DNA of 64,000 nt from Candidatus Giovannonibacteria bacterium RIFCSPLOWO2_02_FULL_43_54 (GCA_001778875.1 MFIK01000041.1:2033-66032); one strand, 5' to 3'; positions 22,357 through 40,657 are shown, numbered from the stretch's first letter. Notes: a model not told the origin generated them from the letters alone. Numbers and translations are program-made.

Positions 22357-22389
22357 ATAGCCAGAAGAATCTGAAATGGAGGAAAAACA

Positions 22390-25500: not shown

Positions 25501-27006
25501 TTACCTGCTTTGAAGCAGATATTCTTTGGCGCTTTCCAGCAAATGTTCCGTTTCCGCGTGGTATTTATTTGGCCACTTTAGGCGGATTTGATCGAAAATA
25601 AGATCACGCAAAAGTTCCGAATTTTGGAAAATCATAAATTCTTTAGGCCATTCCTTGGAAAACTCGCTTTTTATGAGATCCCATGCGGCCACCAAAGGCA
25701 TGATATTCGCGGTTTTTGCAGAAAGCCTTTGGTTTTTGAGTTTTAAGAAATTTCCGCCTCCCATTTCGACTTTAAGCCTGTGTTTCAGCTCCATAAGCTC
25801 CAAATGCTCCACATAAGCAGAAAACAAAAATTTGTTTTTGAACCATGCGTCTAAAATAACGCCGATCTGGACTTCCGACGCGCCTTCATAAATGTCAAAA
25901 ACAAGACTGTCCGCGACAAGCGGCGTTATCGGAGTTTCCATAACATATCCAGATCCTCCAAAAATTCGGTTTACCGCCTGAATTCTCTTTCTCGCGGCTT
26001 GCGATGCGTAAAGCTTAGCCAGCGATGCGTAATGATAAAATTCCTTGCCTTCGTCCTCCAGTTTTGCCGAATAGAAAAGTAAAATTTTGGAAATATCTAT
26101 ATCTCGCGCCAGCTCGCTGATCTCATCATAAATTTTTGAATGATTAATCAGGGGCTCTCCGAAAGTTGTGCGAAGCTGCGCGTATTCTAAAGCCAGTTCC
26201 ATGGCGTGTTCCATAACGCCGATGGCCTGCGCCGCGATCCAGTTTCTTCCATGCGCGAGTGTTGACATTGCGATTTTGAAACCATTTTCGTATTCGCCGA
26301 AAAGATTACTCTCAAACAGATGATAATTATCAAAGAAAATTTTTCCCATATGCGCGGCGTGATTTCCTAGCTTGTGGTCCGGTAATGGAATGGTCAAACT
26401 TGGAGGAGTAGGCCTAAGAAGATGTGGCAAAAAAGCTGTAATGCCTTTGGGGCCCGGCTTATTACGATTGGTGCGGGCAAACAGGATAATAAACTCTGCG
26501 ACCGGTATGTTTGTGATGAATTGTTTTTGTCCGCTTGCCAGCCATCCTCCCACAACTTTTTCCGCGAAAGTTTTGATGCCTCCCGCGTCTGATCCGTAAT
26601 CCGGCTCCGTTAGCCCAAAGGAACCCAAAATTTTCCCCACAGCAAGACGCGGAAGATATGCTTCTTTTTGGCTCTTGCTTCCGAATTTTGAAAGGGGATA
26701 GCTGACAAGAGAATTTCCGACAGCAAGTATCAATGATCCGCCCGACCAAACTCTTGCCATCTCAATCATGGCAAGCACGCCGGACAAATTGTCCGCACCC
26801 TGCCCGCCAAATTCTTCCGGAATATTTATCCCGGTCAGCCCGAGCTCTGCCATCGCATGCACAAATTCCCATGGAAAAGGCGCCCCGTGAAATTCGTATT
26901 TTATGATCATTTCTTTGATGTCTTTTCGTATATTTTGCGTCTTTTCATCCCAAAGCCGGTGTCTGACGTTATTCCTCACCATCAGATGCTCTTCGGAAAA
27001 CTTCAT
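25501..27006 (-). CDS. Acyl-CoA dehydrogenase family protein with a ~100-aa C-terminal extension
   Basis: ACAD N/M/C-domain motifs (GLTEPDYGSDAGGIKT, QKQFITN, IFGGSGYVMETPI); 501 aa. Confidence 0.85.
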   Translation of the reverse strand: MKFSEEHLMVRNNVRHRLWDEKTQNIRKDIKEMIIKYEFHGAPFPWEFVHAMAELGLTGINIPEEFGGQGADNLSGVLAMIEMARVWSGGSLILAVGNSLVSYPLSKFGSKSQKEAYLPRLAVGKILGSFGLTEPDYGSDAGGIKTFAEKVVGGWLASGQKQFITNIPVAEFIILFARTNRNKPGPKGITAFLPHLLRPTPPSLTIPLPDHKLGNHAAHMGKIFFDNYHLFESNLFGEYENGFKIAMSTLAHGRNWIAAQAIGVMEHAMELALEYAQLRTTFGEPLINHSKIYDEISELARDIDISKILLFYSAKLEDEGKEFYHYASLAKLYASQAARKRIQAVNRIFGGSGYVMETPITPLVADSLVFDIYEGASEVQIGVILDAWFKNKFLFSAYVEHLELMELKHRLKVEMGGGNFLKLKNQRLSAKTANIMPLVAAWDLIKSEFSKEWPKEFMIFQNSELLRDLIFDQIRLKWPNKYHAETEHLLESAKEYLLQSR

Positions 27007-27122
27007 TTTTTGGTCCTTTCAATCTGCAAAAAATATAGCACCAGTTAGCATCAAGTACTATTGACAAGATTTATATACTATGATATTCTCAAAATAGAAA
27101 ATTTTCCCTACCGACAGGGCTC

Positions 27123-27310
27123 AATCCGAACACCTTAAATCTTGTTGTAGGATAAGGAATTTCCTGTAGAGGAACGGAGAAAGCGTAGAATTTTGTTGTA
27201 TTTTATACGTTTTCTTCGTTCCTTGAAAATTAGGAATGGTTGAATTTAGCTTGCAGAATTGGTCTGCAAGTGTTCGGATTCAAATGAGACATAAGGTTTC
27301 AGGAGGAAAA
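27123..27310 (+). ncRNA. Candidate structured 5-prime leader or cis-regulatory RNA upstream of a small ORF
   Basis: 10-nt long-range complementarity ATCCGAACAC (27123-27132) with GTGTTCGGAT (27270-27279) enclosing several local hairpins (TTCCTgtagAGGAA; GCAGAattggTCTGC); an AGGAGG Shine-Dalgarno follows; no match to a riboswitch class I can recognise. Confidence 0.25.
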
Positions 27311-27526
27311 ATGAAAATCGTTAATATCCGAATATACGATTTAACTGTGTTTATGAAAGAAGATTTTTTAGAAGTACCAAACAACCTGAATGTTAGTAAA
27401 GAAAAAAAAGATTGGCAAAAATCGCAAAAGGGTTTCAATTGTCAGTCTTTTGCAGATTATTTAATCAGTAGACGAGGAGCCAAAAGAGTGAACTTAGAAG
27501 TTTATTCAACTGAATATAAACGATGA
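27311..27526 (+). CDS. Small hypothetical protein (71 aa)
   Basis: Strong Shine-Dalgarno (CAGGAGGAAAA) 6 nt upstream of the ATG; followed by a terminator. Confidence 0.4.
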   Translation: MKIVNIRIYDLTVFMKEDFLEVPNNLNVSKEKKDWQKSQKGFNCQSFADYLISRRGAKRVNLEVYSTEYKR

Positions 27527-27555
27527 GCCTCCAAATGAGGCTTTTTTGTTTTTTT
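27526..27555 (+). terminator. Intrinsic terminator AGCCTC(caaat)GAGGCT plus T-run
   Basis: Hairpin followed by TTTTTGTTTTTTT. Confidence 0.6.
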
Positions 27556-27620
27556 AACTTAAATAAACAATCTTATCCGATCGGTTGCGTTTGTTTAGTT
27601 TGATCGGATATAGTTTGATT

Positions 27621-27662
27621 AAAAAAACGGCTAAGTGGCAGGCTTAGCCGTTTGTTTTTTTT
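27621..27662. terminator. Bidirectional terminator CGGCTAAG(tggcagg)CTTAGCCG flanked by A7 and T-rich runs; overlaps the meaB stop codon
   Basis: 8-bp perfect stem with flanking homopolymers. Confidence 0.55.
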
Positions 27663-28374
27663 CTATAAATTTTTTATGGATAAAAAGTCCTTCAACGACC
27701 TCTGTGATACCCGAACCGGTTTCGGCGTTCGCAAGATATACTTTCTTTCGCCAGCCGTCATCCAGACATTGTTCGCCGAGAACCAGCTTTGCCGAGGCAA
27801 AGAATTTTTTGCCTGATCTGAAATCTTCGCGGTCGTTAACCACAAAAATATTCGCTTCTTCGCTCTGTCCGGCCTTTTCCAGATTTAAGGAGTCTCCCAG
27901 AGGCTCTATTACCTGGACGAGCGTATCAACGTGTTCGCGTATTTCAACATCGGTTTGTCCCGCTCCAGCGGTTTCGACGATAACGACATCGGAGAATAAT
28001 TTTGAATAAGCGATGATCTTGGAAAAGGAATCTGTGAGAGCAAACCCTTCTCCTCTTGTCGCGAGGCTTCTGATAAATAGTCCTTTGTCACAATCCAATT
28101 CGTCACTCCTTAAATTCCTGCGGTCTCCCAGTATTGCCCATCCTCTTTTTTTTGAGCTTGGATCAATAAGCAGAGCGACTACTCGCATGCCCTTTTTTCT
28201 GAATGATGGGATAAGCCGGCCGATAAGGGTGCTTTTCCCTGCGCCGGTAACGCCCGTGACGCCGATGACCCAGGTATCCGAGCTGTCGATATGCATTTCC
28301 ATAGTCGGATATTTTTGGAAGCAGCCGATAATATAAGCCAAAGCTTGCCTTTCAAGTATTCCTATTTTTTTCAT
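27631..28374 (-). CDS. meaB: MeaB/ArgK-type G-protein chaperone of methylmalonyl-CoA mutase
   Basis: P-loop GVTGVTGAGKSTL; LIDPSS; ETAGAGQ; 1-nt overlap (TAATG) with the mutase gene. Confidence 0.85.
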   Translation of the reverse strand: MKKIGILERQALAYIIGCFQKYPTMEMHIDSSDTWVIGVTGVTGAGKSTLIGRLIPSFRKKGMRVVALLIDPSSKKRGWAILGDRRNLRSDELDCDKGLFIRSLATRGEGFALTDSFSKIIAYSKLFSDVVIVETAGAGQTDVEIREHVDTLVQVIEPLGDSLNLEKAGQSEEANIFVVNDREDFRSGKKFFASAKLVLGEQCLDDGWRKKVYLANAETGSGITEVVEGLFIHKKFIEKKQTAKPAT

Positions 28375-30413
28375 TATTCGGCCCTCTTTTTCATGTTTTG
28401 GATGATCTCGCCGAAATCAGACGATCCCGGGACATAAATATTTTTTATTCCGAGATTTTCTTTGATATATTTTTCGTGCGCGGGAAGCATGATACCCCCG
28501 CCGATTATTTCGATGTCCGAGCCGCCGTAAGACTTCAGAGAATTTTTGAGGTCTTCAAAAAATCCGGGAACATATCCTATCAGCGCGGACAAACCGATAA
28601 AATCAACTCCTTCCTCAACCGCCGCTTTGGCTACCGCTTCGGGGGTTGTCCGAAATCCCAAATGAATGACTTCCGCTCCCATTGCCTGGAAAATATCACG
28701 GAGAATATAAAATCCGACAGTATGGCCGTCATGTCCGCCTTTTGCAAGCAAAACCCGTACCGGTCTCGGAAACCTATATCCTTTTGTAAATTTCAAAGCT
28801 TTTTTATGTGAAAAGGACGATGAAACGCCAGCAGATTCCTTTGCGGAACCCCAGACATCGCGAAGCGCTCCGCAAATTTCCCCGAGCGTTGCCGAAAATT
28901 CAACGGCTTCCTGCAAGACGGGCATCAGGCTCTCTTTTTTTTCGGCGGCTCTCCGCACTTTATCCAACGCTTTCAAAGCGCCGGTCTGATATCTTTGTTT
29001 CTTAAATTTAGACAGCCTGTCCTTTTGTTCGCTTTCGTATCCGTGCCGTTTTTCCACTTCTTCGGAAATTTCGGCCAGATCTTCATTCGCCGTGTCATCC
29101 TGTTCAAAAAAATATTTCTTATTCGGATCATTTTTCCATTGTTCAAAGGTTTCGCGGTCTGCGATGGCGTTTTCGTGGATCTTTTTTTGCGGATACAATT
29201 CTTCGATTGCCTGCACCATTCCCCCGAAACTCTCGATAACCGAAATTTCTTTTTTCGCTTCTTCGTAGATCTTTTCGGTAAGAAATTCTACCTGATAGGA
29301 GCCTGCCAGCGGGTCAACCCAGTTCGTGATGTTCGTTTCTTCAAGCAATATCTGCTGTGTGCGGATGGCCATTCGAACGCCTTTCTCCGTCGGAACGCAC
29401 AAAACCTCGTCATAAGAGTTGGTATGTATGCTCTGAACTCCTCCCAAAAGTGCGGCAAGCGCTTGATTATTTATCCGCATTAGATTTGTCAGTGGTTGAT
29501 TGCGGGTTAAGGTACATCCGGCCGTTTGAGCGTGCATCCGGCACCATAGCGACTGAAGCTTCGTGTCCTTCAAATTGTAATTTTCAGGAATCGGCATGTG
29601 GAATCTTTTATGCATGATCTCCGCCCAGAGCCTCCGCGCCGCGCGGAACTTCGCGATTTCTTCAAAAAAATCATTATGCGAATCAAAGAAAAAAGAAAAT
29701 CTCGGAGCGAATTCCTCGACCTTCAAGTCTCTTTTTAAAAGCTCCTCAACATACGCAATACCGTCCGCAAGCGTGTATGCAACTTCTTGAACCGCGGACG
29801 AACCTGCTTCGCGGATGTGATATCCGCTGATGGAAACTTTATGAAAATTAGAAGGCATCGCCATAAGATCGACCGCAAGCCGGACACCATGCTTTAGAAG
29901 ATACAAAACTTCGTTTTGGGCGATATGTTCTTTAAAAATATCGTTTTGAATAGTACCGCCCAAAGAGGAAAGTGGGATGCCGCGTTTTTTCGCAACGGCA
30001 ATATACATTGCCATGATCACGGCGGCAGGCGCGTTGATAGTCATGGAAACCGTAAGCTTGTTTATCGGTATTCCTGAAAATAATTCATCCATGTCTTCGA
30101 TCGTGTCTATTGCAACGCCGTCCCAGCCGACTTCGTGCCGCGAGAGCGGCGCATCGGAGTCGTCTCCGTATAGCGTCGGCAGGTCGAAGGCGGTTGAAAG
30201 TCCCGTGCCTCCCAAAGAAATGATTTTCTTGAATCTTTCGTTTGTGTGCCGCGCGCACCCATGCCCGGCAAATTGTCTTACCGTCGGTTTTTTATTCCGA
30301 TACATTTCCGGGAAAATCCCGCGCGTAAAAGGATATTTGCCCGGGTCGTTCAGCTTTGTCAAATAATCTATAAGCACTTCCGCCGGCCCGAAAAATCCAT
30401 TTTCAAGGGACAT
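28374..30413 (-). CDS. Methylmalonyl-CoA mutase large subunit (substrate-binding barrel plus C-terminal B12-binding domain)
   Basis: N-terminal FTRGIFPEMYRNKKPTVRQFAG...; C-terminal DxHxxG-type B12 motif LAKGGHDGHTVGF; 679 aa. Confidence 0.85.
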   Translation of the reverse strand: MSLENGFFGPAEVLIDYLTKLNDPGKYPFTRGIFPEMYRNKKPTVRQFAGHGCARHTNERFKKIISLGGTGLSTAFDLPTLYGDDSDAPLSRHEVGWDGVAIDTIEDMDELFSGIPINKLTVSMTINAPAAVIMAMYIAVAKKRGIPLSSLGGTIQNDIFKEHIAQNEVLYLLKHGVRLAVDLMAMPSNFHKVSISGYHIREAGSSAVQEVAYTLADGIAYVEELLKRDLKVEEFAPRFSFFFDSHNDFFEEIAKFRAARRLWAEIMHKRFHMPIPENYNLKDTKLQSLWCRMHAQTAGCTLTRNQPLTNLMRINNQALAALLGGVQSIHTNSYDEVLCVPTEKGVRMAIRTQQILLEETNITNWVDPLAGSYQVEFLTEKIYEEAKKEISVIESFGGMVQAIEELYPQKKIHENAIADRETFEQWKNDPNKKYFFEQDDTANEDLAEISEEVEKRHGYESEQKDRLSKFKKQRYQTGALKALDKVRRAAEKKESLMPVLQEAVEFSATLGEICGALRDVWGSAKESAGVSSSFSHKKALKFTKGYRFPRPVRVLLAKGGHDGHTVGFYILRDIFQAMGAEVIHLGFRTTPEAVAKAAVEEGVDFIGLSALIGYVPGFFEDLKNSLKSYGGSDIEIIGGGIMLPAHEKYIKENLGIKNIYVPGSSDFGEIIQNMKKRAE

Positions 30414-30508
30414 TTTTGACTGTATATTCTGCCAAAACTATAGCACCAGAACGCTTATTTGCAATAAGTGTTTTTTTGTGCTTTTCTGAAAGAAGATAGG
30501 TTCAAAAA

Positions 30509-30898
30509 ATGAGAACGATTACCAAGCATGTTCCCGCGAAAACAATCACATCGTATCAGTGTAGCAGATGTAAAACCAAATATCGGAGCAAAGCAAAGGC
30601 ACTACAATGTGAAGCCCAGATTACGGAAGAAAAAGTATTCAAAATTGGGGAGAGGGTGACTTGGTGTGAGCCTCGTCATTGCCAAAGCTATGATAAGTAT
30701 TACAAGCTTGACGGCAAAGTGAGGAAAATTCTCGGCCCAACGTTACCGGACGAGGAATATAATCTTAAATGGCTCGGTGGTAGGCTTACCGGAAAACATG
30801 TCTTTATATATAATGTTAGTTGGCGATGTCCGCATTGCAAAGAGGTTTTCGACGGCCAATTTTACTCGGCCGAACTAAAAAAAATCAAAACCCGCTAA
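30509..30898 (+). CDS. Hypothetical zinc-ribbon protein (two CxxC pairs)
   Basis: CSRCK...C and CPHCK motifs; 129 aa. Confidence 0.4.
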   Translation: MRTITKHVPAKTITSYQCSRCKTKYRSKAKALQCEAQITEEKVFKIGERVTWCEPRHCQSYDKYYKLDGKVRKILGPTLPDEEYNLKWLGGRLTGKHVFIYNVSWRCPHCKEVFDGQFYSAELKKIKTR

Positions 30899-30913
30899 GC
30901 GTAGCGGGTTTTT
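30889..30913. terminator. Hairpin AACCCGCT(aagcgt)AGCGGGTT plus T5; overlaps the stop codon of the upstream gene
   Basis: 8-bp perfect stem and T-run between convergent genes. Confidence 0.5.
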
Positions 30914-31595
30914 ATGTAAAGTTTTCTATTTTTGCTTTGAGCAAGCCAAGAAACTTGGCTGGGTCTTTTCCATCAAGCGGGCGATGATCAAAAGTTATTT
31001 TAACGTTCATCATTGGCCTTATTACAACCTGCCCCTTGTAAACGACCGGAATTTCTGTAATTCTAAACGCGCTTATCATAAATGTGTGCTCTGCGAGCAG
31101 GGCCGGCGAACCGTTGACGATGTTCGGATACACTCCTATATTATTAAAAATAATGTTTGGTTTCGGCTCAAAGTGCTGGGTTTTCAATTTACCCTCTGTG
31201 GCGATGATTGAAAGCTCTTTTATCTCCGCATTCAATTGCCAAACATTTTTGTGCTCCACATCTTTTATCGTCACAACAGTAAGGCCGTTTTTGGATTCCA
31301 TCGCGAGCCCGAAATTCAATTCGTCGTATAAAAATATTTTTGGCTCCGCCTCCTTTTTAGTAATAGGATCTTTTTTGCCATCTATCCAGACAATGTTCAT
31401 CTGGGGCATTTTACAATAAACTATTTCAGCCATCGCTGAAAGGAATATAGCGTCAATTTTAAACCCATATTGCTTTATTTCAAGGATCGCCCTTGCGTCA
31501 ACGGATACTTCGCATGATGGTCTTGGTATTGCGCCCCCCTTCATCAAGTTCCGCGCCACGGCTTTTCGAAGCTGGGAGACTTTTATTTCTCTCAT
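30912..31595 (-). CDS. 2-oxoacid dehydrogenase E2 catalytic (acyltransferase) domain protein; no lipoyl or subunit-binding domain
   Basis: Catalytic motif DHRPLDG (canonical DHRxxDG) and the CAT-like fold; 227 aa. Confidence 0.8.
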   Translation of the reverse strand: MREIKVSQLRKAVARNLMKGGAIPRPSCEVSVDARAILEIKQYGFKIDAIFLSAMAEIVYCKMPQMNIVWIDGKKDPITKKEAEPKIFLYDELNFGLAMESKNGLTVVTIKDVEHKNVWQLNAEIKELSIIATEGKLKTQHFEPKPNIIFNNIGVYPNIVNGSPALLAEHTFMISAFRITEIPVVYKGQVVIRPMMNVKITFDHRPLDGKDPAKFLGLLKAKIENFT

Positions 31596-31632
31596 GGAGC
31601 TTTTTCGTCTGCCGCAATACTAGCGCTTCCTG

Positions 31633-31663
31633 TTAAAAAATAAAACCCCGCTATTTAGCGGGG
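31633..31663 (-). terminator. Strong intrinsic terminator (CCCCGCT attt AGCGGGG plus TTTTATTTTTT on the minus strand) between the lipoyl-protein gene and the E2 catalytic-domain gene
   Basis: 7-bp GC-rich stem followed by an 11-nt T-rich tract on the coding strand of both flanking genes. Confidence 0.6.
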
Positions 31664-31921
31664 TCACTTTTCTTCAATTATACAGATAACGGCATCGTAT
31701 TTGGCCTTGTCGCCGACCTTCATAAGAATTTCAACTATTTCTCCGGTTGCGGAAGAATATATTTCAACGGCTGCTTTTGCGGTTTCAACAATAGCTATTG
31801 TCTCGTCTTTTTTTACATTTGATCCAATGCCGACCAACAAATCAACCAACTCAAATTCTTGCTCTTCTTTTCCCTCTGAACTGTCTTGCCACTCTGCCTT
31901 TATCTCAATTTTCTTTCCCAT
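31664..31921 (-). CDS. Free-standing lipoyl-domain protein (lipoyl-Lys in ETAKA)
   Basis: 85 aa; VETAKAAVEI lipoyl attachment motif; gene overlaps the E1 gene end by 22 nt. Confidence 0.7.
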   Translation of the reverse strand: MGKKIEIKAEWQDSSEGKEEQEFELVDLLVGIGSNVKKDETIAIVETAKAAVEIYSSATGEIVEILMKVGDKAKYDAVICIIEEK

Positions 31922-33963
31922 AATACGACTCCTTTTGCTGCTTTCACTATATCTTCAACTTGCGGCAGGCGCAATATTTCCAATTCTTGCCGCGCTGTTG
32001 CTGGTCCTTCTTTTGCGCCTAGACGCTCAACCGGCGCCCAGAGTTTATCAAATAGTTCCCGATTAATCAAGTCGGAAATTTCTGCCCCGACTCCAAAATC
32101 TTTTTTCGCTTCATGGATGATCAGAGCTCGCGACGTTTTATCCACGGATTCTAAAACAGCCTCTTTGTCCATCGGGACGATTGTTCTTAAGTCTAGAATT
32201 TCTGCATTTATATTATGGCTTGTTTTCAGAATTTCCGCCGCTTTTAGCGTTCGTTCAACCATTAACGCGCCGTAAGTAATCAAAGAAATATCTTCGCCGT
32301 TTTTGCGAAGAGCCGCTTTTCCGATCGGAACATAATATGGTTCTATGGGAACCAGCCCCTTTTTTGTGTAATGTTCTATTTGTTCGCAAAAAATTACTGG
32401 ATTTCCGTCAGATAGTGAGGATAGGAGCAGTCCTTTGGCGTCAAAAGCGGTTGAAGGAAAAACAATTTTCAGCCCGCCAGCATGAGCCAAAGACGATTCA
32501 ATCATTTTTTGATGTTCTTCATTTGATACGAACCCTCCTCCGCATGGCGCACGGAGAACCATTCGCAAATTTTCTCCTGTTACTGCAAAATGCGTTCCGG
32601 CAAATCTTGTGAGAAAAGCTAACCCGTATTCGGTAAACGGGAAAAATTGAATTTCGCCACAGGGAACAACACCGCTTAATGCCTGCCCAATCATAAACGC
32701 GACAATACAATTTTCATCTAACGGCATATTAAATATACGCTCGCTTCCAAATTTTTCAAATATTTTTTTGGTAATTCCGTGCACGCCGCCAAGCTCGACA
32801 TCTTCCCCGAAAATTCTGATTTTTGGATTTATATCCATGGCTTGACAAAGCGCTTCCGTAATGGCGTCCCCGTAGCGAAGCTCTCTTTCGACGCTTGCAG
32901 GCGTTGCCGGGACTTGAATGGACGGCTTGAAAGTAGGCCGGAGTTTTGATGGCGCGGTAAATTTTTTCTTAATTTCAAATGCTTTTTCTATTTTTTCTTT
33001 GGCGGCAGACAAAAGTTCCTGTTTTTTCTTTTCGTTAAAAACATCTTCTTTTTGTGAAAGAAGCAATAAAGAAAAAAGTTCCAAAGGGTTTCGGCCTTCC
33101 CATTCTCTTTTAAGTTCGCGCGGAAAATATTTCCACATTTCACCTGTTTCGTGCGCGTTGTGTCCCGACACGCGCACCGTCTGGCATTCAATAAAGTGCG
33201 GCGGATGCGGGTCTTTGGCGCTTCTGATCCGGTGCGCGGCCTCTTTGACTGTCCGCCAGACCAAAACCGTGTCATTGCCGAAAATAGTTCTGGTATGCAT
33301 CCCGTAACCGGCGGCTCTTTTGGCAAATTCCGGCTCAGGATTTTGATACTCATTCGGCGTTCGTATTGCCAGACAGTTATTGTTTAAAATAAAAATTACC
33401 GGAAGGTGTCTAGTTGAGGCCAGCTCAAAGGCCGAATGGATGTTTCCGTGCGACATTGCCCCATCACCAAAAAATGCAAGTAGAATTGGATTTTCATCGG
33501 CGCCGTTTTTATCAATATAATCGCGCAGATAATAAATTCCATCAATTACACCGGCGCCTATCGTTGTATTCGCTCCCATATCGGAAATAAATCTGATGGT
33601 GCGACGCTTGATGTCGCCGATATGAATCCCGAAGTCGTACCCGCCGTAAAGCGACTCGGCATATGCGCCATATTGAGCGATTATTTCTTCTTCGGTAATT
33701 CCCCAGATGGGAAGAGCGCAGGTTGAGCGGTGGTCTGGAGCCAACAGGTCGTAAGACGATTCCGCCGCCAACATTGCGCCGACATAGATCGCTTCTTGGC
33801 CGAGGCCTGTAAAAACTTTCAGTGGCTTGAATTCCTCTTTTCGTTCGTCGAGCATTTTTCCGAAATAGGTCATCTCGGCGAGCCGGCGATACATCAACAA
33901 ATATTCTTCAGGAGTCGGAATAAAAATCTTCCGTCTCGGGGTAAAATCCCGTGAGTGCGGCAT
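31900..33963 (-). CDS. Fused E1 alpha-beta component of a 2-oxoacid (pyruvate / branched-chain) dehydrogenase
   Basis: TPP-binding GDGAMSHGNIHSAFELA...NN in the N-terminal half; transketolase-like beta half (FGEDVELGGVHGITKK, IQFFPFTEYG); 687 aa. Confidence 0.85.
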   Translation of the reverse strand: MPHSRDFTPRRKIFIPTPEEYLLMYRRLAEMTYFGKMLDERKEEFKPLKVFTGLGQEAIYVGAMLAAESSYDLLAPDHRSTCALPIWGITEEEIIAQYGAYAESLYGGYDFGIHIGDIKRRTIRFISDMGANTTIGAGVIDGIYYLRDYIDKNGADENPILLAFFGDGAMSHGNIHSAFELASTRHLPVIFILNNNCLAIRTPNEYQNPEPEFAKRAAGYGMHTRTIFGNDTVLVWRTVKEAAHRIRSAKDPHPPHFIECQTVRVSGHNAHETGEMWKYFPRELKREWEGRNPLELFSLLLLSQKEDVFNEKKKQELLSAAKEKIEKAFEIKKKFTAPSKLRPTFKPSIQVPATPASVERELRYGDAITEALCQAMDINPKIRIFGEDVELGGVHGITKKIFEKFGSERIFNMPLDENCIVAFMIGQALSGVVPCGEIQFFPFTEYGLAFLTRFAGTHFAVTGENLRMVLRAPCGGGFVSNEEHQKMIESSLAHAGGLKIVFPSTAFDAKGLLLSSLSDGNPVIFCEQIEHYTKKGLVPIEPYYVPIGKAALRKNGEDISLITYGALMVERTLKAAEILKTSHNINAEILDLRTIVPMDKEAVLESVDKTSRALIIHEAKKDFGVGAEISDLINRELFDKLWAPVERLGAKEGPATARQELEILRLPQVEDIVKAAKGVVLWERKLR

Positions 33964-34813: not shown

Positions 34814-34849
34814 GTTTCTGAAAAAAAGAAACCGCCCGCTTTTTATTTT
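34806..34849 (+). terminator. Intrinsic terminator (long bulged stem GCGGGTAGGTTTCT...AGAAACCGCCCGC plus TTTTTATTTT)
   Basis: Extended inverted repeat and T-run at the 3-prime end of the kinase-like gene. Confidence 0.6.
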
Positions 34850-35694
34850 GTATAAACCTTTGAATTATTTTTTATGAAATCAATCATCTCGTTTCGCGAG
34901 ATGAGGCCGTTTTTTTCGATCATATTTTTTAATGAGCCTGTTTGCGCGGCTTCCGTCAGGATCGACTCGAAATATTTGAGCGTGAGGCGCAAAGGTGTCA
35001 CGGGAATAAGGACGATTTGATAGCCCAAAACAAAAAGTTTTTCCGCGGTAAGATCAGACGGGGATTTTCCTCCCTCGGCCATATTTGCAGCGAGCGGGAT
35101 ATTTATGACATCTCTCCCGAATATCCGAAATTCATCTTCCGACTCCAGCGCTTCAGGGAATATTATGTCCGCTCCGGCTTGTTTGTATCCATAACCGCGC
35201 CATTTTGCTTCGGAGAGGCCGTCTGTCGCTCTTGAATCAGTTCTTGCGACAATAAGAAAATCCTGATTTTTTCTGGCGGATACCGCGGCCTTGATCTTCT
35301 TTTCCATCTCGTCTATTGGAATGATTTTTTTTGCGTCCAAATGCCCGCATCTTTTTTCTGAAGGAACTTGATCTTCTATTTGAACAGCGCTTGCTCCGGA
35401 GGCTTCAAGCGCTTTAACGGTTTTTGCGATCGATTGAAAGCCTGTATCGCAATCAACCAAAAGAGGCATATCGCTCGCGCGTCTTATTTCGCGGACTAGG
35501 CTTGTTATTCTTGCGAGCGTTATTTTCCCTTCGTCCAAAAAACCCAAAGAAGTGGAGAGCGCTGCGCCAGAAATATAACACGCCTTAAAATCTGCCTTTT
35601 CCGCAAGCAACGCTTCGATAGGGGACAAAATTCCCGGCAGGATAAGATTTTCATTCTCCGATAACAGCTCGCGGAGAGTTTTTCTTCCGGCCAT
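34843..35694 (-). CDS. Isocitrate lyase / PEP mutase family protein, 2-methylisocitrate lyase (PrpB)-like
   Basis: ILPGILSPIEALLAEKADFKACYISGAA, DCDTGF, SAVQIEDQVPSEKRCGHL motifs; start at the internal ATG (MAGRKTL). Confidence 0.7.
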   Translation of the reverse strand: MAGRKTLRELLSENENLILPGILSPIEALLAEKADFKACYISGAALSTSLGFLDEGKITLARITSLVREIRRASDMPLLVDCDTGFQSIAKTVKALEASGASAVQIEDQVPSEKRCGHLDAKKIIPIDEMEKKIKAAVSARKNQDFLIVARTDSRATDGLSEAKWRGYGYKQAGADIIFPEALESEDEFRIFGRDVINIPLAANMAEGGKSPSDLTAEKLFVLGYQIVLIPVTPLRLTLKYFESILTEAAQTGSLKNMIEKNGLISRNEMIDFIKNNSKVYTK

Positions 35695-35767
35695 TTTTAA
35701 TCTCGCAATCTGACAAAAAGAATAGCATAGCAATAATAAGAAAATCAAAAACCCGGCGGATGCCGGG

Positions 35768-36289
35768 TTATTTTTTCGGCGGATAGAGCAGTGCGTGTAT
35801 TTCATTTGGATCAGGTTCGACTCTGACTGCAAAAAATCTTGCCTCCGCGCAAATCACGCCTTTTACAACAAGTTCTGCAAAAATAGTGCAACGCCTGCTT
35901 TCTGTTTTCAGCTCTTCAACTCTGGCAAGAACAGTGATTATTTCCGAGTCAATCGGTATCGGCTTTAAATATTTTACGTAGTCGGAACCGCCGGTTACAT
36001 ACATAATGACGGGGTCGCTTGCAAAAGGACGTTTTTCAAAATCGTACCTTGCCGCAATCGCCGTCCAGATGGAATGACAGTCCATCAATGCGTATTGGAT
36101 GGCGCCATTGATTCTGCCCCTGGTAGTCGCGGTGCAAAATTTTCTAATTCGCCAATTGCAAATGGTTTCTTTGTGGTCAGGACCCACCCAATAGCTTTTT
36201 GTGACGTGAATGCCTCTTTTGTTCGCCGGTCCGCAACCAAAACAGATATTGCCCGGAAAATGTTCCTGAAAGGATTTTTCTTTTTTCAT
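35768..36289 (-). CDS. Hotdog-fold thioesterase (PaaI/4HBT family)
   Basis: INGAIQYALMDCHSIWTAIA and the C-terminal hotdog-helix region; 173 aa. Confidence 0.6.
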   Translation of the reverse strand: MKKEKSFQEHFPGNICFGCGPANKRGIHVTKSYWVGPDHKETICNWRIRKFCTATTRGRINGAIQYALMDCHSIWTAIAARYDFEKRPFASDPVIMYVTGGSDYVKYLKPIPIDSEIITVLARVEELKTESRRCTIFAELVVKGVICAEARFFAVRVEPDPNEIHALLYPPKK

Positions 36290-36298
36290 GCCGACACC

Positions 36299-36853
36299 TC
36301 AATCCACCGGCACCCATGCTAGATCAAGGATGGTGTAAGTCGGGTTTCGTCTCCGAAAGACCGGCTTGACCGGCATTCCTATGTAAGGCTCATCTTCGGC
36401 AAATTTTGAAAGATAGCTCATTGGCCGTGTCCACACTTTTGGTATTTCAAGCGATATCAAGGGACACGGGACTGTTCCCTTAAATCCTGCTCCCGGCAAA
36501 TTTGTTGTTGAGTGGCTGTAAATTTTAGCACCCGTCGGATCAATGGTCATCCAAGTCATCTTGCGCCAGCAGTCCGGACAATGAACCCGGGGAGGCAGCC
36601 AAATATTTCCTTCCGGCCCTCCGCAATTCCAGCATTTAGTTCCCAAAAGCGCGCCTTCCGTAAGTCCTTTGAAAAATTTGGAAAGGCCTCCATAAGTATG
36701 TACGTGGACGATCTCCCGCGGATTGAATCTCACCAGTAAATCGTCCGGAATTTTTTCCTTGAACCATTCTTTGGCAAGTTTCGGCGCGCCGTCCGACGGT
36801 ATCATTACATGTTGTCTTATTTTTCTGTTATTCATTTTACCAGCCCCTTTCAA
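36299..36853 (-). CDS. DUF35 OB-fold / rubredoxin-like zinc-ribbon protein (partner subunit of SCP2-type thiolases)
   Basis: Cys-rich CWNCG...CPDC zinc ribbon plus OB fold; sits directly downstream of the SCP2-thiolase gene, as in known thiolase/DUF35 pairs. Confidence 0.65.
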   Translation of the reverse strand: MKGAGKMNNRKIRQHVMIPSDGAPKLAKEWFKEKIPDDLLVRFNPREIVHVHTYGGLSKFFKGLTEGALLGTKCWNCGGPEGNIWLPPRVHCPDCWRKMTWMTIDPTGAKIYSHSTTNLPGAGFKGTVPCPLISLEIPKVWTRPMSYLSKFAEDEPYIGMPVKPVFRRRNPTYTILDLAWVPVD

Positions 36854-38216
36854 GGATCAGTGCGGTTACGTGCGAGCCGGTTCCTGCGTGGCTGATTGCC
36901 ATTCCGCGCGTCGCGTTCGGCACCTGAAGACTTTTGAAATCTTTCGGCTTTGTTTTGCCATATTTATTCCAATATTTTTCGTCCGCGTGGAATTTTTCCC
37001 ATTCATTGCGGATTTGCCAAAAAATTTCCGCGATCTGGAAAATTCCGGTGGCTCCAACCGAATGCATCGAGCCGATAAGGCCGCCAGAAAGATTTGTCGG
37101 CAATTTGCGTTCTGACGGCAGATCACTTTCCAGATATGCCTCACCCGACTCAATAAATTCGGCGCCTCTGCCATAGGGGCGCAACCCGATATCTTCGTAG
37201 GTTATGATGTCTGAAACCGTGAACGCGTCGTGCGTTTCAAGCAGGTCAAGTTCGCGGATTGGATTATGAATTCCTGCCATATTATACGCCTGCCAGGCGG
37301 CGAAACGGGCTGCAAGAAAGCTTATAAAACCTGGCCAATCTCTTTCTGGCCAATCTTTATACATCTCCGGTGTTTCGCTTGGGAGAAGCAAGATCGGCAT
37401 GTTCCTGCGATCTGCCGTGCGCAATGTGTGCGATCCCGCGCCCATTCCCAAAACGCGCACTGGCTTGTCTGTAAACCGGAACGCGGTTTCTTCGTCCGCA
37501 ATTATCACGGATGCCGCTCCCGTGCTCATTACGCAGCACTCTGGAAATGTAAGCGGGTCTGAAACTATCTGCGAGTTCAGTATCTCTTCAATCGTATAAT
37601 CTTTCGGCGACTGCGAATACGGAGAGAAGCGCGCGTAATGATGGTTTTTTTGTGCGATCTTTGCAAGCGTTTCTCGTAGCGGCTTGTTTTCGTGGATATA
37701 TCTTTGCATTGGCAAACCGTAATAAGTTGTGTAGCTTCTGCCAAGTTCGTATTCAAAATCTTTGCACGCGGCGGATGCGATGTATGAGTTGCCTTGCCTG
37801 GTCGAAACTTCATCCATTCTCTCCCAGCCGATTACAGGCACGCAAGAAGCAACGCCTGACGCAACAGCCATTATGGCTGCCTGCGCTGCCGAACCGCCTG
37901 TTGCTCCACCTGTTTTCACCTCGATATTTCCGAGAGGATCAAATCCAGCATAGTCATGCACTTTTGCTGCGGCAAGCAATTGGTCGCCGAAATGGTCGGC
38001 AAATTGCGAATGCACGCAATAATTCGGCTCTTCCAGAAATTTTTTAGGTTCCATCCCGAGGCCATCCATAACGGCCATTCTTATTGCTTCAAGGCACAAT
38101 TCAACGGTCTGCTTTTCCGGATAAAATTTCCTGAAATCCGTCATCCCAGCGGCTACAATATAAACATTCCGCGATAGCTTAGGCACCCTCAAATTTCCTT
38201 TGCCGAATGTTAGCAT
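36837..38216 (-). CDS. SCP2/thiolase-like 3-ketoacyl-CoA thiolase
   Basis: Thiolase fold throughout (VYIVAAGMTDFRKF, catalytic Cys region, C-terminal HAGTGSH); 459 aa. Confidence 0.8.
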   Translation of the reverse strand: MLTFGKGNLRVPKLSRNVYIVAAGMTDFRKFYPEKQTVELCLEAIRMAVMDGLGMEPKKFLEEPNYCVHSQFADHFGDQLLAAAKVHDYAGFDPLGNIEVKTGGATGGSAAQAAIMAVASGVASCVPVIGWERMDEVSTRQGNSYIASAACKDFEYELGRSYTTYYGLPMQRYIHENKPLRETLAKIAQKNHHYARFSPYSQSPKDYTIEEILNSQIVSDPLTFPECCVMSTGAASVIIADEETAFRFTDKPVRVLGMGAGSHTLRTADRRNMPILLLPSETPEMYKDWPERDWPGFISFLAARFAAWQAYNMAGIHNPIRELDLLETHDAFTVSDIITYEDIGLRPYGRGAEFIESGEAYLESDLPSERKLPTNLSGGLIGSMHSVGATGIFQIAEIFWQIRNEWEKFHADEKYWNKYGKTKPKDFKSLQVPNATRGMAISHAGTGSHVTALILERGW

Positions 38217-38357
38217 TTATGCTCCTTTTCCTGTTTTCAATCCCGCCTTAGGCGGGTAAATCTATTCAAAAGCTAGCAAAAGAAAATTCTGACGTAAAGT
38301 CGATTGCCGGTTTGCAGATAGAAAATAACTCCCTTCTATTTTTCTACTTTTCATACA

Positions 38358-38393
38358 TTGATCAACTTTACGCGATCGCGTAAAGTTGAACCA
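38358..38393 (+). promoter_or_regulatory. Candidate autoregulated promoter: TTGATC (-35), 17-bp spacer that is the core of the perfect palindrome CAACTTTACGCGATCGCGTAAAGTTG (38363-38388), TAAAGT (-10), then the ATG 7 nt downstream (leaderless-type)
   Basis: 26-nt perfect palindrome overlapping consensus-like promoter hexamers immediately upstream of the ATG at 38394. Confidence 0.45.
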
Positions 38394-38951
38394 ATGGCAA
38401 AGTATTATTATAGCCCGATAAAACAGCGCGTTGTTATGCTTCTCGCGGCAGGTTTCATGCTTGGTTTTTCAAAGTCGCCGCGCACCCACGCAAAAATATG
38501 GAAAAGCCTTCCGAAAGTATGGAAAGAAATAGGGCGTATTACGCTCCGGCGCATCATTAAAGAATTTAAATATAAACGGTTAGTTGATTTCAAAGAAGAA
38601 AAAGACGGCACAGTGTCGGTCGTATTAACGAAACTCGGACAACATCATGCCTTAAAATATAATCCGGAAAAGATCAAAATTTCAATTCCGACGAAATGGG
38701 ACGGAAAATGGAGAGTTGTTATTTTTGATATACCGGAGAAGAAAAAGAAGGCAAGGGACGCTTTGCGTTGGGAACTCAAGAAAATAGGTTTTATAGAGCT
38801 TCAAAAAAGCGCCTGGATTTTCCCTTACGAATGCGAAAACGCGATTGATTTTATTGTTGAGTTATTTGATGTCCGCAATTATGTGCGGATATTGGAAGTA
38901 GCAAGCATGAATCATGATGCCGATTTGCTATTGGATTTTGATCTCACATAA
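38394..38951 (+). CDS. Predicted transcriptional regulator: N-terminal winged-helix-like region plus C-terminal Cas2/VapD-fold-like domain (PaaX-like architecture)
   Basis: C-terminal KWRVVIFDIPEKKKKARDALRWELKKIGFIELQKSAWIFP follows the Cas2 beta1-alpha1-beta2 pattern; flanked by two related palindromes; start at the ATG inside the listed ORF. Confidence 0.5.
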   Translation: MAKYYYSPIKQRVVMLLAAGFMLGFSKSPRTHAKIWKSLPKVWKEIGRITLRRIIKEFKYKRLVDFKEEKDGTVSVVLTKLGQHHALKYNPEKIKISIPTKWDGKWRVVIFDIPEKKKKARDALRWELKKIGFIELQKSAWIFPYECENAIDFIVELFDVRNYVRILEVASMNHDADLLLDFDLT

Positions 38952-38976
38952 TACTATAAACAGTAATGTAACTAGT

Positions 38977-39004
38977 CCAACTTTCCGCGGTCGCGAGAAG
39001 TTGG
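38977..39004. promoter_or_regulatory. Second, imperfect copy of the palindromic site (CCAACTTTCCGCGGTCGCGAGAAGTTGG) downstream of the regulator gene
   Basis: 22 of 26 positions identical to the upstream palindrome; no T-run, so unlikely to be a simple terminator. Confidence 0.4.
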
Positions 39005-39039
39005 ACGGATAGGTTTAAAGAAAATAAAAATCTAAAAAA

Positions 39040-39636
39040 TTATTTACAAGAATGAGAAGTGTGGAGTGCAGAAATAACTCCAGAAAAATTTGTACTGTCT
39101 GCACAATAATATTCTCCACTATATAGTTTGGCTGATACTGCGTAGGACTCTCCATCAGTACAACGAAATGGTTGACTCCCTAATTTTTCTTTTATCTCTG
39201 CCAACGTTCTATGTGCGGGCTCTTCTTTTGTATTACAAAAACCTGCATAATTTGGATGGGAATCCCTGTACATTTCAGCTGAAGGACGTGTGGTCGCTAT
39301 TAAGTTTAAGAGAGCAAGATCATCTTGGACTCTGTCTTTTTGAGTTTCCGCTGTCGCGCTCTTGCTCTGATCAATAATCATCGTCAAAGTTGCTTTGTAT
39401 CCTTGCGAGAGCCACTCGTCTGAACCATCTCGAGCTACCACAGAAATAACAATGAATTTGTTGTTATTTAGTGGTATAACATATGAGTCGCTTTTAGCTT
39501 TGGTTTCTTTGTAAATTATTTGTTTGGAATCAATCCCACTTATTTTTACTTTTTCTTCAACATAAGGACGACCTGAATATTCTGCCATACCTCTTGCCTC
39601 TATTGCCGGGTCTTTATCGACAAGATAAATTCCCAT
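39040..39636 (-). CDS. Hypothetical secreted or membrane-associated protein; possibly the C-terminal part of a frameshifted gene continuing from ORF 39695..39994
   Basis: 198-aa ORF; the upstream ORF lies in a different frame (offset 1 mod 3), separated by 58 nt. Confidence 0.35.
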   Translation of the reverse strand: MGIYLVDKDPAIEARGMAEYSGRPYVEEKVKISGIDSKQIIYKETKAKSDSYVIPLNNNKFIVISVVARDGSDEWLSQGYKATLTMIIDQSKSATAETQKDRVQDDLALLNLIATTRPSAEMYRDSHPNYAGFCNTKEEPAHRTLAEIKEKLGSQPFRCTDGESYAVSAKLYSGEYYCADSTNFSGVISALHTSHSCK

Positions 39637-39694
39637 CTCATGATCAAAGTAAGTATAATTTGAGGTGTATCCAATCGGTTCCTTTTTTCCAAGA

Positions 39695-39994
39695 TCAGAA
39701 AAAGGCTACTCCTTCTCTTACATCACTGACAATCCAATTTGATGGAATTGAGATATTATATAACCCTGATGGATGGCGATATGTTTTATTAGAAATTGAT
39801 TTCGCTGTCGCTGGCGAGGATGGTGTAGAAACTTCCAAATTAGTGTCCTCTATTTTCGAAGATTCGGATTTATTTTCAGATTTTGTAATTCCTTTATTTA
39901 AATAAATATATGTTCCTCCTCCAATCAAAACTAAACCTACAATGATTGCTATTGCCAAACCAATAAAACCTTGCTGTGAGTTTTTCATATTCAT
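39695..39994 (-). CDS. Hypothetical protein with an N-terminal transmembrane anchor (possible N-terminal part of a split gene)
   Basis: FIGLAIAIIVGLVLIGGGTYIY helix followed by a Ser/Thr-rich linker. Confidence 0.35.
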   Translation of the reverse strand: MNMKNSQQGFIGLAIAIIVGLVLIGGGTYIYLNKGITKSENKSESSKIEDTNLEVSTPSSPATAKSISNKTYRHPSGLYNISIPSNWIVSDVREGVAFF

Positions 39995-40095
39995 ATCATA
40001 TTCTTATTTTAGCAATTTATCAACCGAAACTCCAAGCGATTGAGCTAAACAGATTTCAGGCCAGAGTGCAGGAGAAAATAAAAGCCGCCTCTTTA

Positions 40096-40605
40096 TTAGA
40101 AGGCGGACAGTTCTTTTTTTTCGATCTGTTTCAATTTTTCTTCCCAAAGTACGGCAGGCCGGACGGCGTAATGAAAAATATATTGAGCTTTTAGAGTATG
40201 CGGCCGGCTGACATTGTTTAGATTTTTTACCTCAACGGCCACCGAAATGAGGTCCGGTTTAGCAAGCCTGTCATTTATGACGCGCGCGTTTATTCTCAAA
40301 CCTCTTTCGGCCTGGATGGTCGGGGCGTATAGTTTGCCCTTTTCGGTCTTTATATAAAGAACATATTCCTCGGGAGTTGTTAAAGTCATCGCGGCATAGA
40401 TGCCGACCATTACTGCGAAATCTTCGATTCTTTTTCCGCGCACCATCGGAAAGTTGTGCATTGTAAGGATTTCTTTGTTGCCCTCGAGTTCGAGAATGGC
40501 GTAAGCCTTTCCTGTCAGCAGAAGCCGTAATTTTAAATGATTTTCTTTCGCCGAATACAATTCTCCAAAAGACCTTTCAAGCTCAAGAATCCGCCCCACC
40601 GACAC
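40096..40605 (-). CDS. Hypothetical protein (169 aa)
   Basis: ORF with coherent coding statistics; no recognisable motif. Confidence 0.4.
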   Translation of the reverse strand: MSVGRILELERSFGELYSAKENHLKLRLLLTGKAYAILELEGNKEILTMHNFPMVRGKRIEDFAVMVGIYAAMTLTTPEEYVLYIKTEKGKLYAPTIQAERGLRINARVINDRLAKPDLISVAVEVKNLNNVSRPHTLKAQYIFHYAVRPAVLWEEKLKQIEKKELSAF

Positions 40606-40657
40606 TCCTTTTTTAAATTTAATCTATCCGGATACTAGCAAAATAAAAACGCCGGTG

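Follow-up and report, generated by a model that had tools for sequence, protein, structure and literature searches.

The 64,000-nt stretch of Candidatus Giovannonibacteria bacterium RIFCSPLOWO2_02_FULL_43_54 analysed here (GCA_001778875.1, MFIK01000041.1:2033-66032; this whole stretch is called the window below) carries on its minus strand, according to the listing of its open reading frames (ORFs), three consecutive genes of a 2-oxoacid dehydrogenase: a fused E1αβ, a free lipoyl protein and a bare E2 catalytic domain (E2cat). We consider it likely that this locus encodes a disassembled, minimal 2-oxoacid dehydrogenase, in which E2cat has a promoter of its own and a hairpin between the lipoyl and E2cat genes insulates two transcription units. 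The locus belongs to a small clade within the Candidate Phyla Radiation (CPR)/Parcubacteria. As an enzyme, the system is an unusual, rare variant of the known 2-oxoacid dehydrogenases, and our literature search found no paper describing such a split E1αβ/lipoyl/E2cat arrangement.

The ORFs are exactly those given in a preliminary description of this DNA, i.e. a fused E1 of 687 aa, an overlapping lipoyl protein of 85 aa and an E2cat of 227 aa (the coordinates of all features are collected in the table). The E1αβ protein, which would be the thiamine pyrophosphate (TPP)-dependent decarboxylase/dehydrogenase component, holds the Pfam domains E1_dh (residues 51-333), Transket_pyr (362-528) and Transketolase_C (548-672) on one chain. 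Its closest matches in the PDB are the E1beta of Geobacillus pyruvate dehydrogenase (PDH; 3e-61) and the E1alpha of human branched-chain 2-oxoacid dehydrogenase (BCKDH; 6e-25); the beta half is thus PDH-like and the alpha half BCKDH-like, and the sequence does not settle the substrate. Fusions named 'alpha-ketoacid dehydrogenase subunit alpha/beta' are already present in NCBI, and proteins identical to E1 and E2 of the window have been deposited as 'Parcubacteria group bacterium GW2011_GWA2_44_13' and 'Candidatus Giovannonibacteria bacterium RIFCSPHIGHO2_02_43_13'. The lipoyl gene, which has a Shine-Dalgarno sequence (AAGGAG), shares 22 nt with the E1 gene. In its 85-aa product, the predicted lipoyl-lysine is K49 within VETAKAAVEI; the protein is closest to the lipoyl domains of the PDH E2 (E2p) of E. 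coli and A. vinelandii, with the lysine in register, and is of the lipoyl rather than the biotinyl (MKM) type, as ETAKA pairs with GDKA of E. coli and SAKA of A. vinelandii. This lysine is invariant in all eight aligned lipoyl proteins, each from a different lineage. A weak match to GCV_H (E=2e-7) is also observed.

The E2cat ORF cannot be extended at its N-terminus, since an in-frame TAG is found at 31622-31620 and no in-frame start precedes the ATG at 31595. Pfam finds no lipoyl domain on the E2cat chain, the lipoyl domain being encoded by the separate gene. The lack of a peripheral subunit-binding domain (PSBD, PF02817), already stated in the preliminary description, was upheld both by Pfam searches of the three proteins and by a home-made PSBD hidden Markov model run over all six frames of the window (best E=1.2); the latter also rules out that a PSBD is encoded by another small ORF of the window.

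To judge whether this layout is peculiar to one genome, the window can be compared with related loci, which are numbered with the prefix L. The three-gene order E1αβ, lipoyl protein and bare E2cat was present in all 12 independent lineages examined (gene order was read in L001-L004, L005-L008, L009-L012, L016-L021, L023, L024, L027, L028, L031 and L032). In these relatives E1αβ has 683-703 aa, and the lipoyl protein has 84-90 aa and overlaps the E1 gene by 4-14 nt. Close homologues of E2cat are few: among 5.8 billion clusters we found six (57-100% identity, 210-248 aa), beyond which the next matches are canonical E2s at 25-30% identity, and an exhaustive profile search of 1.84 billion representatives returned nine proteins below E=1e-30 (110-242 aa, stand-alone or fragments), followed by a gap after which canonical E2s start at about 1e-23. 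Among the GTDB representative genomes, close relatives of E2cat were not found, the matches being distant canonical E2s at 21-24% identity. Purifying selection on the genes is indicated by a proportion of non-synonymous differences (pN) of 0.12-0.28 vs 0.59-0.86 for synonymous differences (pS) in six lineages, the synonymous sites being saturated.

In three distant lineages the lipoyl-E2cat junction lacks a hairpin; the two genes are separated by 3 nt in L023 and by 2 nt in L024 and overlap by 4 nt in L028. Because the three-gene order is universal in the relatives and these three lineages join the lipoyl and E2cat genes without a hairpin, the split appears to be ancestral. On this comparative evidence we regard the split E2 as an old, conserved state and not as a recent disruption, and the hairpin-plus-promoter junction may be a derived feature of the window's subclade, with simple co-translation as the ancestral state. 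The non-canonical complex architecture suspected in the preliminary description is thereby supported and extended by a conserved gene order under purifying selection. It had also considered that relatives might carry an uninterrupted E2; there is none among the relatives found, all of which share the three genes.

The lipoyl and E2cat genes of the window are separated by a 68-nt spacer that reads TGA-CCCCGCU-AAAU-AGCGGGG-UUUUAUUUUUU-AACAGGAAGC-GCUAGUAU-UGCGGCAGACGAAAAAGCUCC-AUG on the coding strand. The 7-bp GC stem noted previously in front of E2cat is indeed there, as the core of a stem of nine pairs which also takes in the final two nucleotides of the TGA that closes the lipoyl gene. This hairpin was the top-ranked terminator-like site in a 10-kb scan and folds at -16.0 kcal/mol; it is present in both the minimum free energy and the centroid structure, and it is the dominant fold in every lineage. 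A GC hairpin at or inside the stop codon, followed by a T-run, occurs in nine of nine lineages (the window, L001, L005, L009, L016, L020, L027, L031 and L032), and in the six close ones the stem always begins inside the stop codon. The spacers of these nine lineages measure 39-92 nt as the genes were called, with the E2cat starts of L001 and L005 set at the codons aligned to the MKELK of the window (the database starts lie earlier, that of L005 inside the hairpin). When the four stems of equal geometry are aligned, 100% of the cells pair and three of the nine pairs are changed on both sides, compared with 39-56% pairing in controls whose 3' partners were slid by 1-3 columns. Terminators abutting a stop codon are general in the window (e.g. 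at 30912, 35769 and 27653). With its GC-rich stem, the U-run directly behind it and its position on the transcribed strand, the hairpin is by sequence criteria a predicted Rho-independent terminator, and its U-tract probably also serves the promoter behind it as an A/T-rich upstream region.

Directly after the U-tract, and 15 nt before the E2cat ATG, we found GCTAGTAT-N6-CAGA. The preliminary description had seen no obvious promoter for E2cat, but this -10-like box GCTAGTAT and the CAGA lie between hairpin and ATG and are conserved; its statement that E2cat has no Shine-Dalgarno of its own agrees with the leader sequence (GACGAAAAAGCUCC before the ATG). Apart from the hairpin, the spacers of the six closest lineages share just one invariant block, GCTA..AT, with C(A/G)GA 6 nt behind it. 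The -10 box has the form TAGTAT, TAATAT or TAGCAT in these lineages, with an extended TG in four of the six, and lies 21-24 nt from the start codon; the predicted pyrimidine-purine start site 7 nt behind the box would leave leaders of 15-17 nt. In L016 and L020, which have longer spacers, TTGCCA stands 18 and 17 nt, respectively, upstream of TGCTAATAT (TAATAT); in the shorter spacers the -35 region is occupied by the U-tract. Close variants are seen in L027 (GTTAAGTT...GAGA), L031 (GCTAATAT...CAGT) and L032 (GCTAGCAT...CAGA). Altogether, the hairpin, the U-tract and GCTARYAT-N6-CAGA or a close variant of it are kept in nine lineages, even though synonymous sites are saturated among the six compared lineages. 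The window's own version is the weakest predicted promoter of the set. We conclude that E2cat has a predicted promoter of its own.

Other elements were looked for at the same junction. The short spacer frames beginning with ATG or ATT in the window, L005 and L009 differ in frame and sequence; as these frames are not conserved across lineages, the idea that the spacer holds an upstream ORF or encodes a leader peptide was rejected. No alternative antiterminator fold was found at the junction, where the hairpin is preceded by the end of the lipoyl coding sequence, and Rfam gave nothing there (the only matches in the whole window are two tRNAs); a riboswitch or another known RNA element in this region was rejected on this ground. 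The attenuator-like arrangement seen in the preliminary description is therefore left without an antiterminator fold, an Rfam element or a conserved leader peptide, and the dependence of E2cat on terminator read-through that it had deduced does not agree with a conserved promoter-like element that follows the U-tract and recurs before other genes.

The motif GCTANNNT-N3-8-CAGA has six matches in the window (1.74±1.30 expected; none of 100 shuffles reaches six), and all six lie 13-25 nt upstream of the start of an ORF on the same strand, namely those of acyl-CoA dehydrogenase (ACAD), methylmalonyl-CoA mutase (MCM), E2cat, a PrpB-like protein and two others. The match at the MCM gene coincides with an independently called consensus promoter (TTGCAA-16-TG-TATAGT). 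Orthologous gene starts in L005, L009, L016 and L027 carry the motif as well, often right after a hairpin and T-tract; CAGA closes all six window matches, and the relatives again show CAGA or something close to it. The shape of the motif is that of an extended -10 element (TGnTAnnnT), and TTGCAA, TTGACC or TTGCCA is found at 16-18 nt where there is no U-tract upstream. A hairpin followed by this promoter-like element is also present at other same-strand junctions, i.e. before the PrpB-like gene (35769-35709) and between the MeaB and ACAD genes of L005, L009 and L027, and the MCM and PrpB-like genes of the window likewise have A-rich leaders of ~15 nt without a Shine-Dalgarno. From these recurrences we conclude that the predicted terminator-promoter module is the normal punctuation of this gene cluster and that its regulation would be ordinary. 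As a side observation, (T)GCTAnnnT-N5-6-CAGA may be a promoter consensus for this CPR lineage. Also, the window has about 590 nt without a convincing gene (27040-27630) between the MeaB terminator (27653-27625) and the ACAD motif (27039), a place where terminator and promoter adjoin each other in L005, L009 and L027; this DNA may have been inserted, or it may be what is left of a gene now lost.

On the protein side, E2cat keeps H204 and D208 of the DHRPLDG motif, and the His and Asp of DHRxxDG are invariant in both of our alignments, the larger of which holds 14 sequences. At the oxyanion position, where the canonical motif (S/T)N(G/L/I)G has Ser or Thr, E2cat has N151 (IIFNNIG). All 11 full-length family members examined have Asn here instead of Ser/Thr, mostly as FNN(I/V)G or LNN(L/M/V)G, compared with T(I/L)(S/T)N(G/L)G in canonical E2s. 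The C-terminus of E2cat is IENFT, and the full-length family members examined all stop at IEN(F/P)xx; in the same alignments, most canonical E2s extend further with a hydrophobic tail (e.g. ESLLIEG, ARMLLEV). In canonical E2s the C-terminal helix (PxxLLL-type) docks into the neighbouring trimer and thereby builds up 24- or 60-mers. Because this inter-trimer helix is absent, E2cat is predicted to be a free trimer. Like E2cat itself, the full-length family members examined have neither a PSBD nor a lipoyl domain. The AlphaFold2 model of E2cat (pLDDT 86.7, pTM 0.84) was compared with the PDB by Foldseek, and the 50 best matches listed were all E2 cores (TM 0.69-0.76).

We propose that the system would work as follows. 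The fused E1αβ would decarboxylate a 2-oxoacid and reductively acylate the K49 lipoyl-lysine of the free 85-aa carrier, and the bare E2cat, probably a simple trimer, would move the acyl group to CoA. The carrier would shuttle between the enzymes like the H-protein of the glycine cleavage system, without the swing on a scaffold. The E1 and lipoyl genes would form one transcription unit that ends at the intrinsic terminator fused to the stop codon, and their translation would be coupled because the genes overlap. E2cat would be a second unit with its own promoter, whose -10 box lies 10 nt past the U-tract, and with a leader of ~15 nt without a Shine-Dalgarno. Since the E2cat promoter follows the terminator, the hairpin would insulate the two units rather than gate E2cat by read-through, and carrier and acyltransferase could be made in different amounts, an option that a canonical E2, being a single chain, does not have. 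A more far-reaching version, which we put forward tentatively and consider rather doubtful, is that of a truly scaffold-free 2-oxoacid dehydrogenase, in which a free carrier, a fused E1αβ and a merely trimeric, knob-less and PSBD-less E2 using Asn operate in the manner of the glycine cleavage system. The carrier may in that case be re-oxidised by a partner other than a classical E3 (dihydrolipoamide dehydrogenase), as no E3 gene was found linked to the locus (cf. the oxidoreductase cluster after E2cat in L001, see below).

The regulatory part of the proposal has two competitors. In one, E2cat is promoterless and made only from transcripts that pass the hairpin, which would then be an attenuator that tunes the expression of the acyltransferase or gates it conditionally. 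A strong hairpin with a U-tract does lie on the coding strand, and in the six close lineages the stem starts inside the stop codon, so that a terminating ribosome could hinder its folding and couple read-through to translation; the window also has a weak -35, no TG extension and no Shine-Dalgarno. We nevertheless hold such attenuation to be improbable, as nine lineages conserve the -10/CAGA element, which is also seen in front of other genes, L016 and L020 carry canonical -35 boxes, the hairpin dominates the folds with neither a conserved antiterminator or leader peptide nor an Rfam match, terminators abutting stop codons are general in the window, and the lineages without the hairpin couple the lipoyl and E2cat genes tightly instead. 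According to the other competitor, which appears slightly less probable still, one long transcript is made, the hairpin is a stabiliser of a 3' end or a processing boundary, and GCTAnnAT...CAGA is a signal for RNA cleavage or ribosome loading. RNase Y is indeed encoded in the window (10106-11632), the motif always lies at most 25 nt from the start codon, and several of the genes concerned lack a Shine-Dalgarno. However, the motif matches an extended -10 element in shape and spacing, with -35-like boxes where there is no U-tract, and it is likewise found downstream of neighbours of opposite orientation (e.g. MCM, 30444; 22349), where processing of a polycistronic transcript is inapplicable.

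On the enzymatic side, E2cat might not be the CoA acyltransferase partner of E1 and the lipoyl protein at all; it might have been taken over for a different acceptor, e.g. an acyl carrier protein (ACP), or be catalytically altered. The Asn at the oxyanion site of all full-length family members examined would fit this, as would the ACP and thiolase-like genes directly after E2cat in L024 and the missing E3. We judge it distinctly unlikely, however, given the strict order behind E1 and the lipoyl gene in 12 lineages (with overlap or gaps of 2-3 nt in three of them), the retained His and Asp of DHRxxDG, the predicted fold of an E2 core, and fused proteins of the type E1αβ-lipoyl domain-catalytic domain, which show that the three functions go together. 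That a once-intact E2 gene was recently disrupted or pseudogenised in this genome has practically no probability left and is already refuted by the comparative data: nothing but the odd look of the locus speaks for it, no relative has an intact E2 at the locus, pN is far below pS in six lineages, and the full-length members examined all begin at the catalytic domain and end with IEN(F/P)xx. We therefore favour the disassembled 2-oxoacid dehydrogenase with two insulated transcription units, against which the following observations have to be set. The -10 box of the window, TAGTAT, agrees with the consensus at 4/6 positions, has no TG and is preceded by a -35 (TTTTAT) with 2/6, and a scan with the sigma-70 consensus did not call the site; to our knowledge, CPR promoters have not been characterised experimentally; and read-through may still add to the expression of E2cat. 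The E1 resembles PDH and BCKDH enzymes to about the same degree, and the Asn in place of the oxyanion Ser/Thr could mean that the acyltransferase chemistry is changed or lost. LplA-like, prpC and prpD genes are absent from the window by tblastn. When the 64-kb window and 29 related loci (about 336 kb, redundant copies counted) were searched by tblastn with the Lpd of E. coli, a query that had been validated, no E3 was detected, and the related loci beyond those 29 likewise show no E3-type gene; for this reason the redox end of the cycle is unaccounted for.

Table. Features of the 2-oxoacid dehydrogenase locus and its surroundings. Coordinates refer to the window unless a related locus (L number) is given.
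Feature	Location	Strand	Remarks
Fused E1αβ (TPP-dependent 2-oxoacid decarboxylase/dehydrogenase component)	31900-33963	-	687 aa; PF00676, PF02779, PF02780
Free lipoyl carrier protein	31664-31921	-	85 aa; PF00364, E=1e-12
Predicted terminator hairpin GACCCCGCU-AAAU-AGCGGGGUU	31644-31665	-	9-bp stem (6 G-C), 4-nt loop
U-tract of this terminator, UUAUUUUUU (TTATTTTTT)	31635-31643	-	T-tract kept in nine lineages
-10-like box GCTAGTAT	31617-31624	-	TAGTAT at 31622-31617; no extended TG; -35 position TTTTAT
CAGA motif	31608-31611	-	GGCAGA/GACAGA/AACAGA in relatives; predicted start = A at 31610, 7 nt past the -10 box
Predicted A-rich leader AGACGAAAAAGCUCC	31596-31610	-	15 nt; no Shine-Dalgarno
Stand-alone E2 catalytic (acyltransferase) domain	30912-31595	-	227 aa; PF00198, E=1e-32, profile positions 5-227 of 232
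Predicted terminator behind the E2cat gene, AAAACCCGCUACGCUUAGCGGGUUUU then U-run	30877-30912	-	abuts the E2cat stop codon
Promoter/start-like motif	13192-13208	+	
Promoter/start-like motif	22349-22365	+	upstream neighbour on the other strand
Promoter/start-like motif, ACAD gene	27023-27039	-	
Promoter/start-like motif, MCM gene	30428-30444	-	upstream neighbour on the other strand
Promoter/start-like motif, E2cat gene	31608-31624	-	
Promoter/start-like motif, PrpB-like gene	35709-35726	-	
PrpB-like gene (PEP-mutase/isocitrate-lyase family)	34843-35694	-	PF13714; own hairpin-plus-promoter module 35769-35709
Acyl-CoA/aromatic-acid metabolism island	14034-21034, 25501-30413, 34843-42364		
Two-CxxC protein gene	30509-30898	+	
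Two-CxxC protein gene, L005	9511-9900	-	
Two-CxxC protein gene, L001	11764-12153	-	
Two-CxxC protein gene, L009	9516-9914	-	
LplA/LipB-family gene, L005	8766-9428		
LplA/LipB-family gene, L027	8726-9382		
LplA/LipB-family gene, L028	2888-3565		
LplA/LipB-family gene, L031	3872-4564		
LplA/LipB-family gene, L032	12655-13308		

The gene content of the window fits a CPR bacterium (FtsH, RNase Y, NusA, H+-pyrophosphatase, type IV pilus genes, a Mur ligase). The window also carries a large acyl-CoA island that encodes a fused B12 mutase of the methylmalonyl-CoA-mutase family together with MeaB, an acyl-CoA dehydrogenase, thiolases together with a DUF35 protein, the PrpB-like lyase, an aromatic amino-acid lyase, three AMP-forming ligases, a short-chain dehydrogenase/reductase and a PaaX-like regulator; such an acyl-CoA/aromatic-acid island is unusual for Parcubacteria. 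In L009 (10544-12263) the mutase gene, with a product of 665-687 aa elsewhere, is split into 164 and 392 aa, which may reflect a frameshift, a pseudogene or an assembly error.

The PrpB-like protein, of the phosphoenolpyruvate (PEP)-mutase/isocitrate-lyase family, scores 265 bits with TIGR02317 (prpB), under the cut-off of 354. Its start is probably the ATG at 35694 (MAGRKTL..., 283 aa; homologues have 287-301 aa), as the longest ORF, starting with TTG at 35832, would run through the terminator and promoter upstream of the gene. The PrpB-like gene is found upstream of E1 in most lineages, adjacent to it in L001, L005 and L009 and with one or two genes between in L023, as in the window; L023 adds prpC and prpD upstream, and L001 adds a citrate-synthase-family gene. 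A neighbouring prpBCD and mutase island has been described in a related Parcubacterium, Ca. Parcunitrobacter (Castelle et al. 2017, PMC5220378); the main text and supplements of that paper, as far as they were accessible, do not mention E1, lipoyl or E2 genes. The PrpB-like lyase is the probable supplier of pyruvate, and, judged from the neighbouring genes alone, pyruvate is most likely the 2-oxoacid substrate.

An LplA/LipB-family gene of ~220 aa lies antisense directly after E2cat in six loci (L005, L010, L027, L028, L031 and L032). These adjacent lipoate-ligase-family genes of the relatives tie the system to lipoate salvage, and from them lipoylation of the 85-aa carrier is indirectly predicted. 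In the genome of the window the LplA/LipB gene has been lost from the locus or moved elsewhere (cf. window 30877-30912). A tblastn search of the window for E3, LplA, PrpC, PrpD and 2-oxoacid:ferredoxin oxidoreductase (OFOR) found none of them, the sole match being a 129-aa zinc-ribbon gene. Close downstream of E2cat, and convergent with it, the window, L001, L005 and L009 encode a conserved protein of 129-132 aa that has two CxxC pairs, belongs to no Pfam family and is 85% identical between the window and L005. In L001, a three-gene OFOR cluster follows directly after E2cat (8790-11718), and its organism would hold lipoyl- and ferredoxin-dependent 2-oxoacid oxidation side by side. In the distant lineage L024 (1784-3586), E2cat is directly followed by genes for an 83-aa PP-binding (ACP-like) protein and a thiolase-like protein, a hint that acyl groups may be handed on to a carrier protein.

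2-Oxoacid dehydrogenases, which textbooks present as an obligate megacomplex, serve as the standard example of substrate channelling on a giant E2 scaffold, and CPR bacteria are usually described as fermenters. The trimeric E2 core of actinobacteria was reportedly treated as a break of paradigm in 2021; the three-piece system, if true, would be a state still more reduced than that core and selected in ultra-small CPR genomes. Such a system could reveal the minimal requirements of 2-oxoacid dehydrogenase chemistry, and it bears on how CPR bacteria might oxidise pyruvate from a methylcitrate-type pathway. If the scaffold-free version held, the E2cat promoter would set a high ratio of carrier to acyltransferase. 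The regulatory part is of lesser weight: it describes a terminator-promoter module of compact layout and, in TGCTAnnnT-N6-CAGA followed by short leaders that have no Shine-Dalgarno, a likely promoter/start-site consensus.

Compared with the canonical complexes with a heterotetrameric-type E1 (Geobacillus PDH, BCKDH), the system shares the TPP-dependent E1 alpha and beta modules, the lipoyl lysine in its usual turn and an E2 catalytic domain with a fold like that of chloramphenicol acetyltransferase (CAT) and the DHRxxDG motif. It differs from them in that E1 alpha and beta form a single chain, the lipoyl domain exists as an 85-aa protein of its own, no linked E3 was found in the loci searched, and E2 has neither a PSBD nor the C-terminal helix and carries Asn in place of the oxyanion residue of the Ser558 type (A. 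vinelandii E2p, PDB 1dpb title). Actinobacterial PDH/2-oxoglutarate dehydrogenase has a trimeric AceF core and an OdhA in which an E2o domain is fused to E1o (bioRxiv 10.1101/2020.07.24.212647; PMC8740704; PMC10415282). It likewise departs from the 24- or 60-meric core, and a catalytic domain in it uses a lipoyl domain supplied in trans. The actinobacterial core is said to be kept trimeric by a C-terminal insertion, whereas in E2cat the helix is simply absent. In addition, AceF keeps its lipoyl domains and PSBD, and the catalytic domain of OdhA is fused to a homodimeric-type E1o, whereas here the lipoyl domain is free and there is no PSBD.

By analogy, the system most plausibly resembles the glycine cleavage system, where a small free lipoyl protein (H-protein) visits the separate, non-scaffolded enzymes P, T and L. 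The likeness is one of architecture only, as the partners there are a pyridoxal-phosphate-dependent P-protein and a folate-dependent T-protein, but here a TPP-dependent E1 and a CAT-like acyltransferase. Stand-alone lipoyl carriers beside dedicated lipoate-ligase genes and outside a classical complex are also known as LbpA, the GcvH-like lipoate-binding proteins that work with Hdr-like enzymes in the sHdr sulfur-oxidation system (PMC6067878). The carrier of the window differs from LbpA in being an E2p-type lipoyl domain encoded between the E1 and E2 catalytic genes.

Closest in domain order are three uncharacterised metagenomic proteins (P0233-P0235), single chains of 1019-1044 aa that run E1αβ-lipoyl-E2cat, like the three genes of the window, and are likewise PSBD-less; they show that this set of domains can work without a PSBD. 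Unlike the window's system, they consist of a single polypeptide; the catalytic Ser is retained (ISSLG), and the catalytic domain is only a distant relation of E2cat (BLASTP E=1e-4 over 32 residues). They were rejected as a direct ancestor, the catalytic domain being too remote, and are treated as an analogue. In the one genomic context of such a fusion that was read (L030, fusion at 8001-11135), the neighbours are a TonB-dependent receptor and aspartokinase-type genes, unlike those of the window locus. As for the junction, an internal terminator followed by a promoter is a commonplace way of uncoupling adjacent genes on the same strand, and the parts, i.e. GC hairpin, U-run, -10 box and predicted start site, are the same here; the difference lies in the very compact arrangement, with the hairpin starting inside the stop codon, the U-tract over the -35 position and a predicted leader of ~15 nt that has no Shine-Dalgarno.

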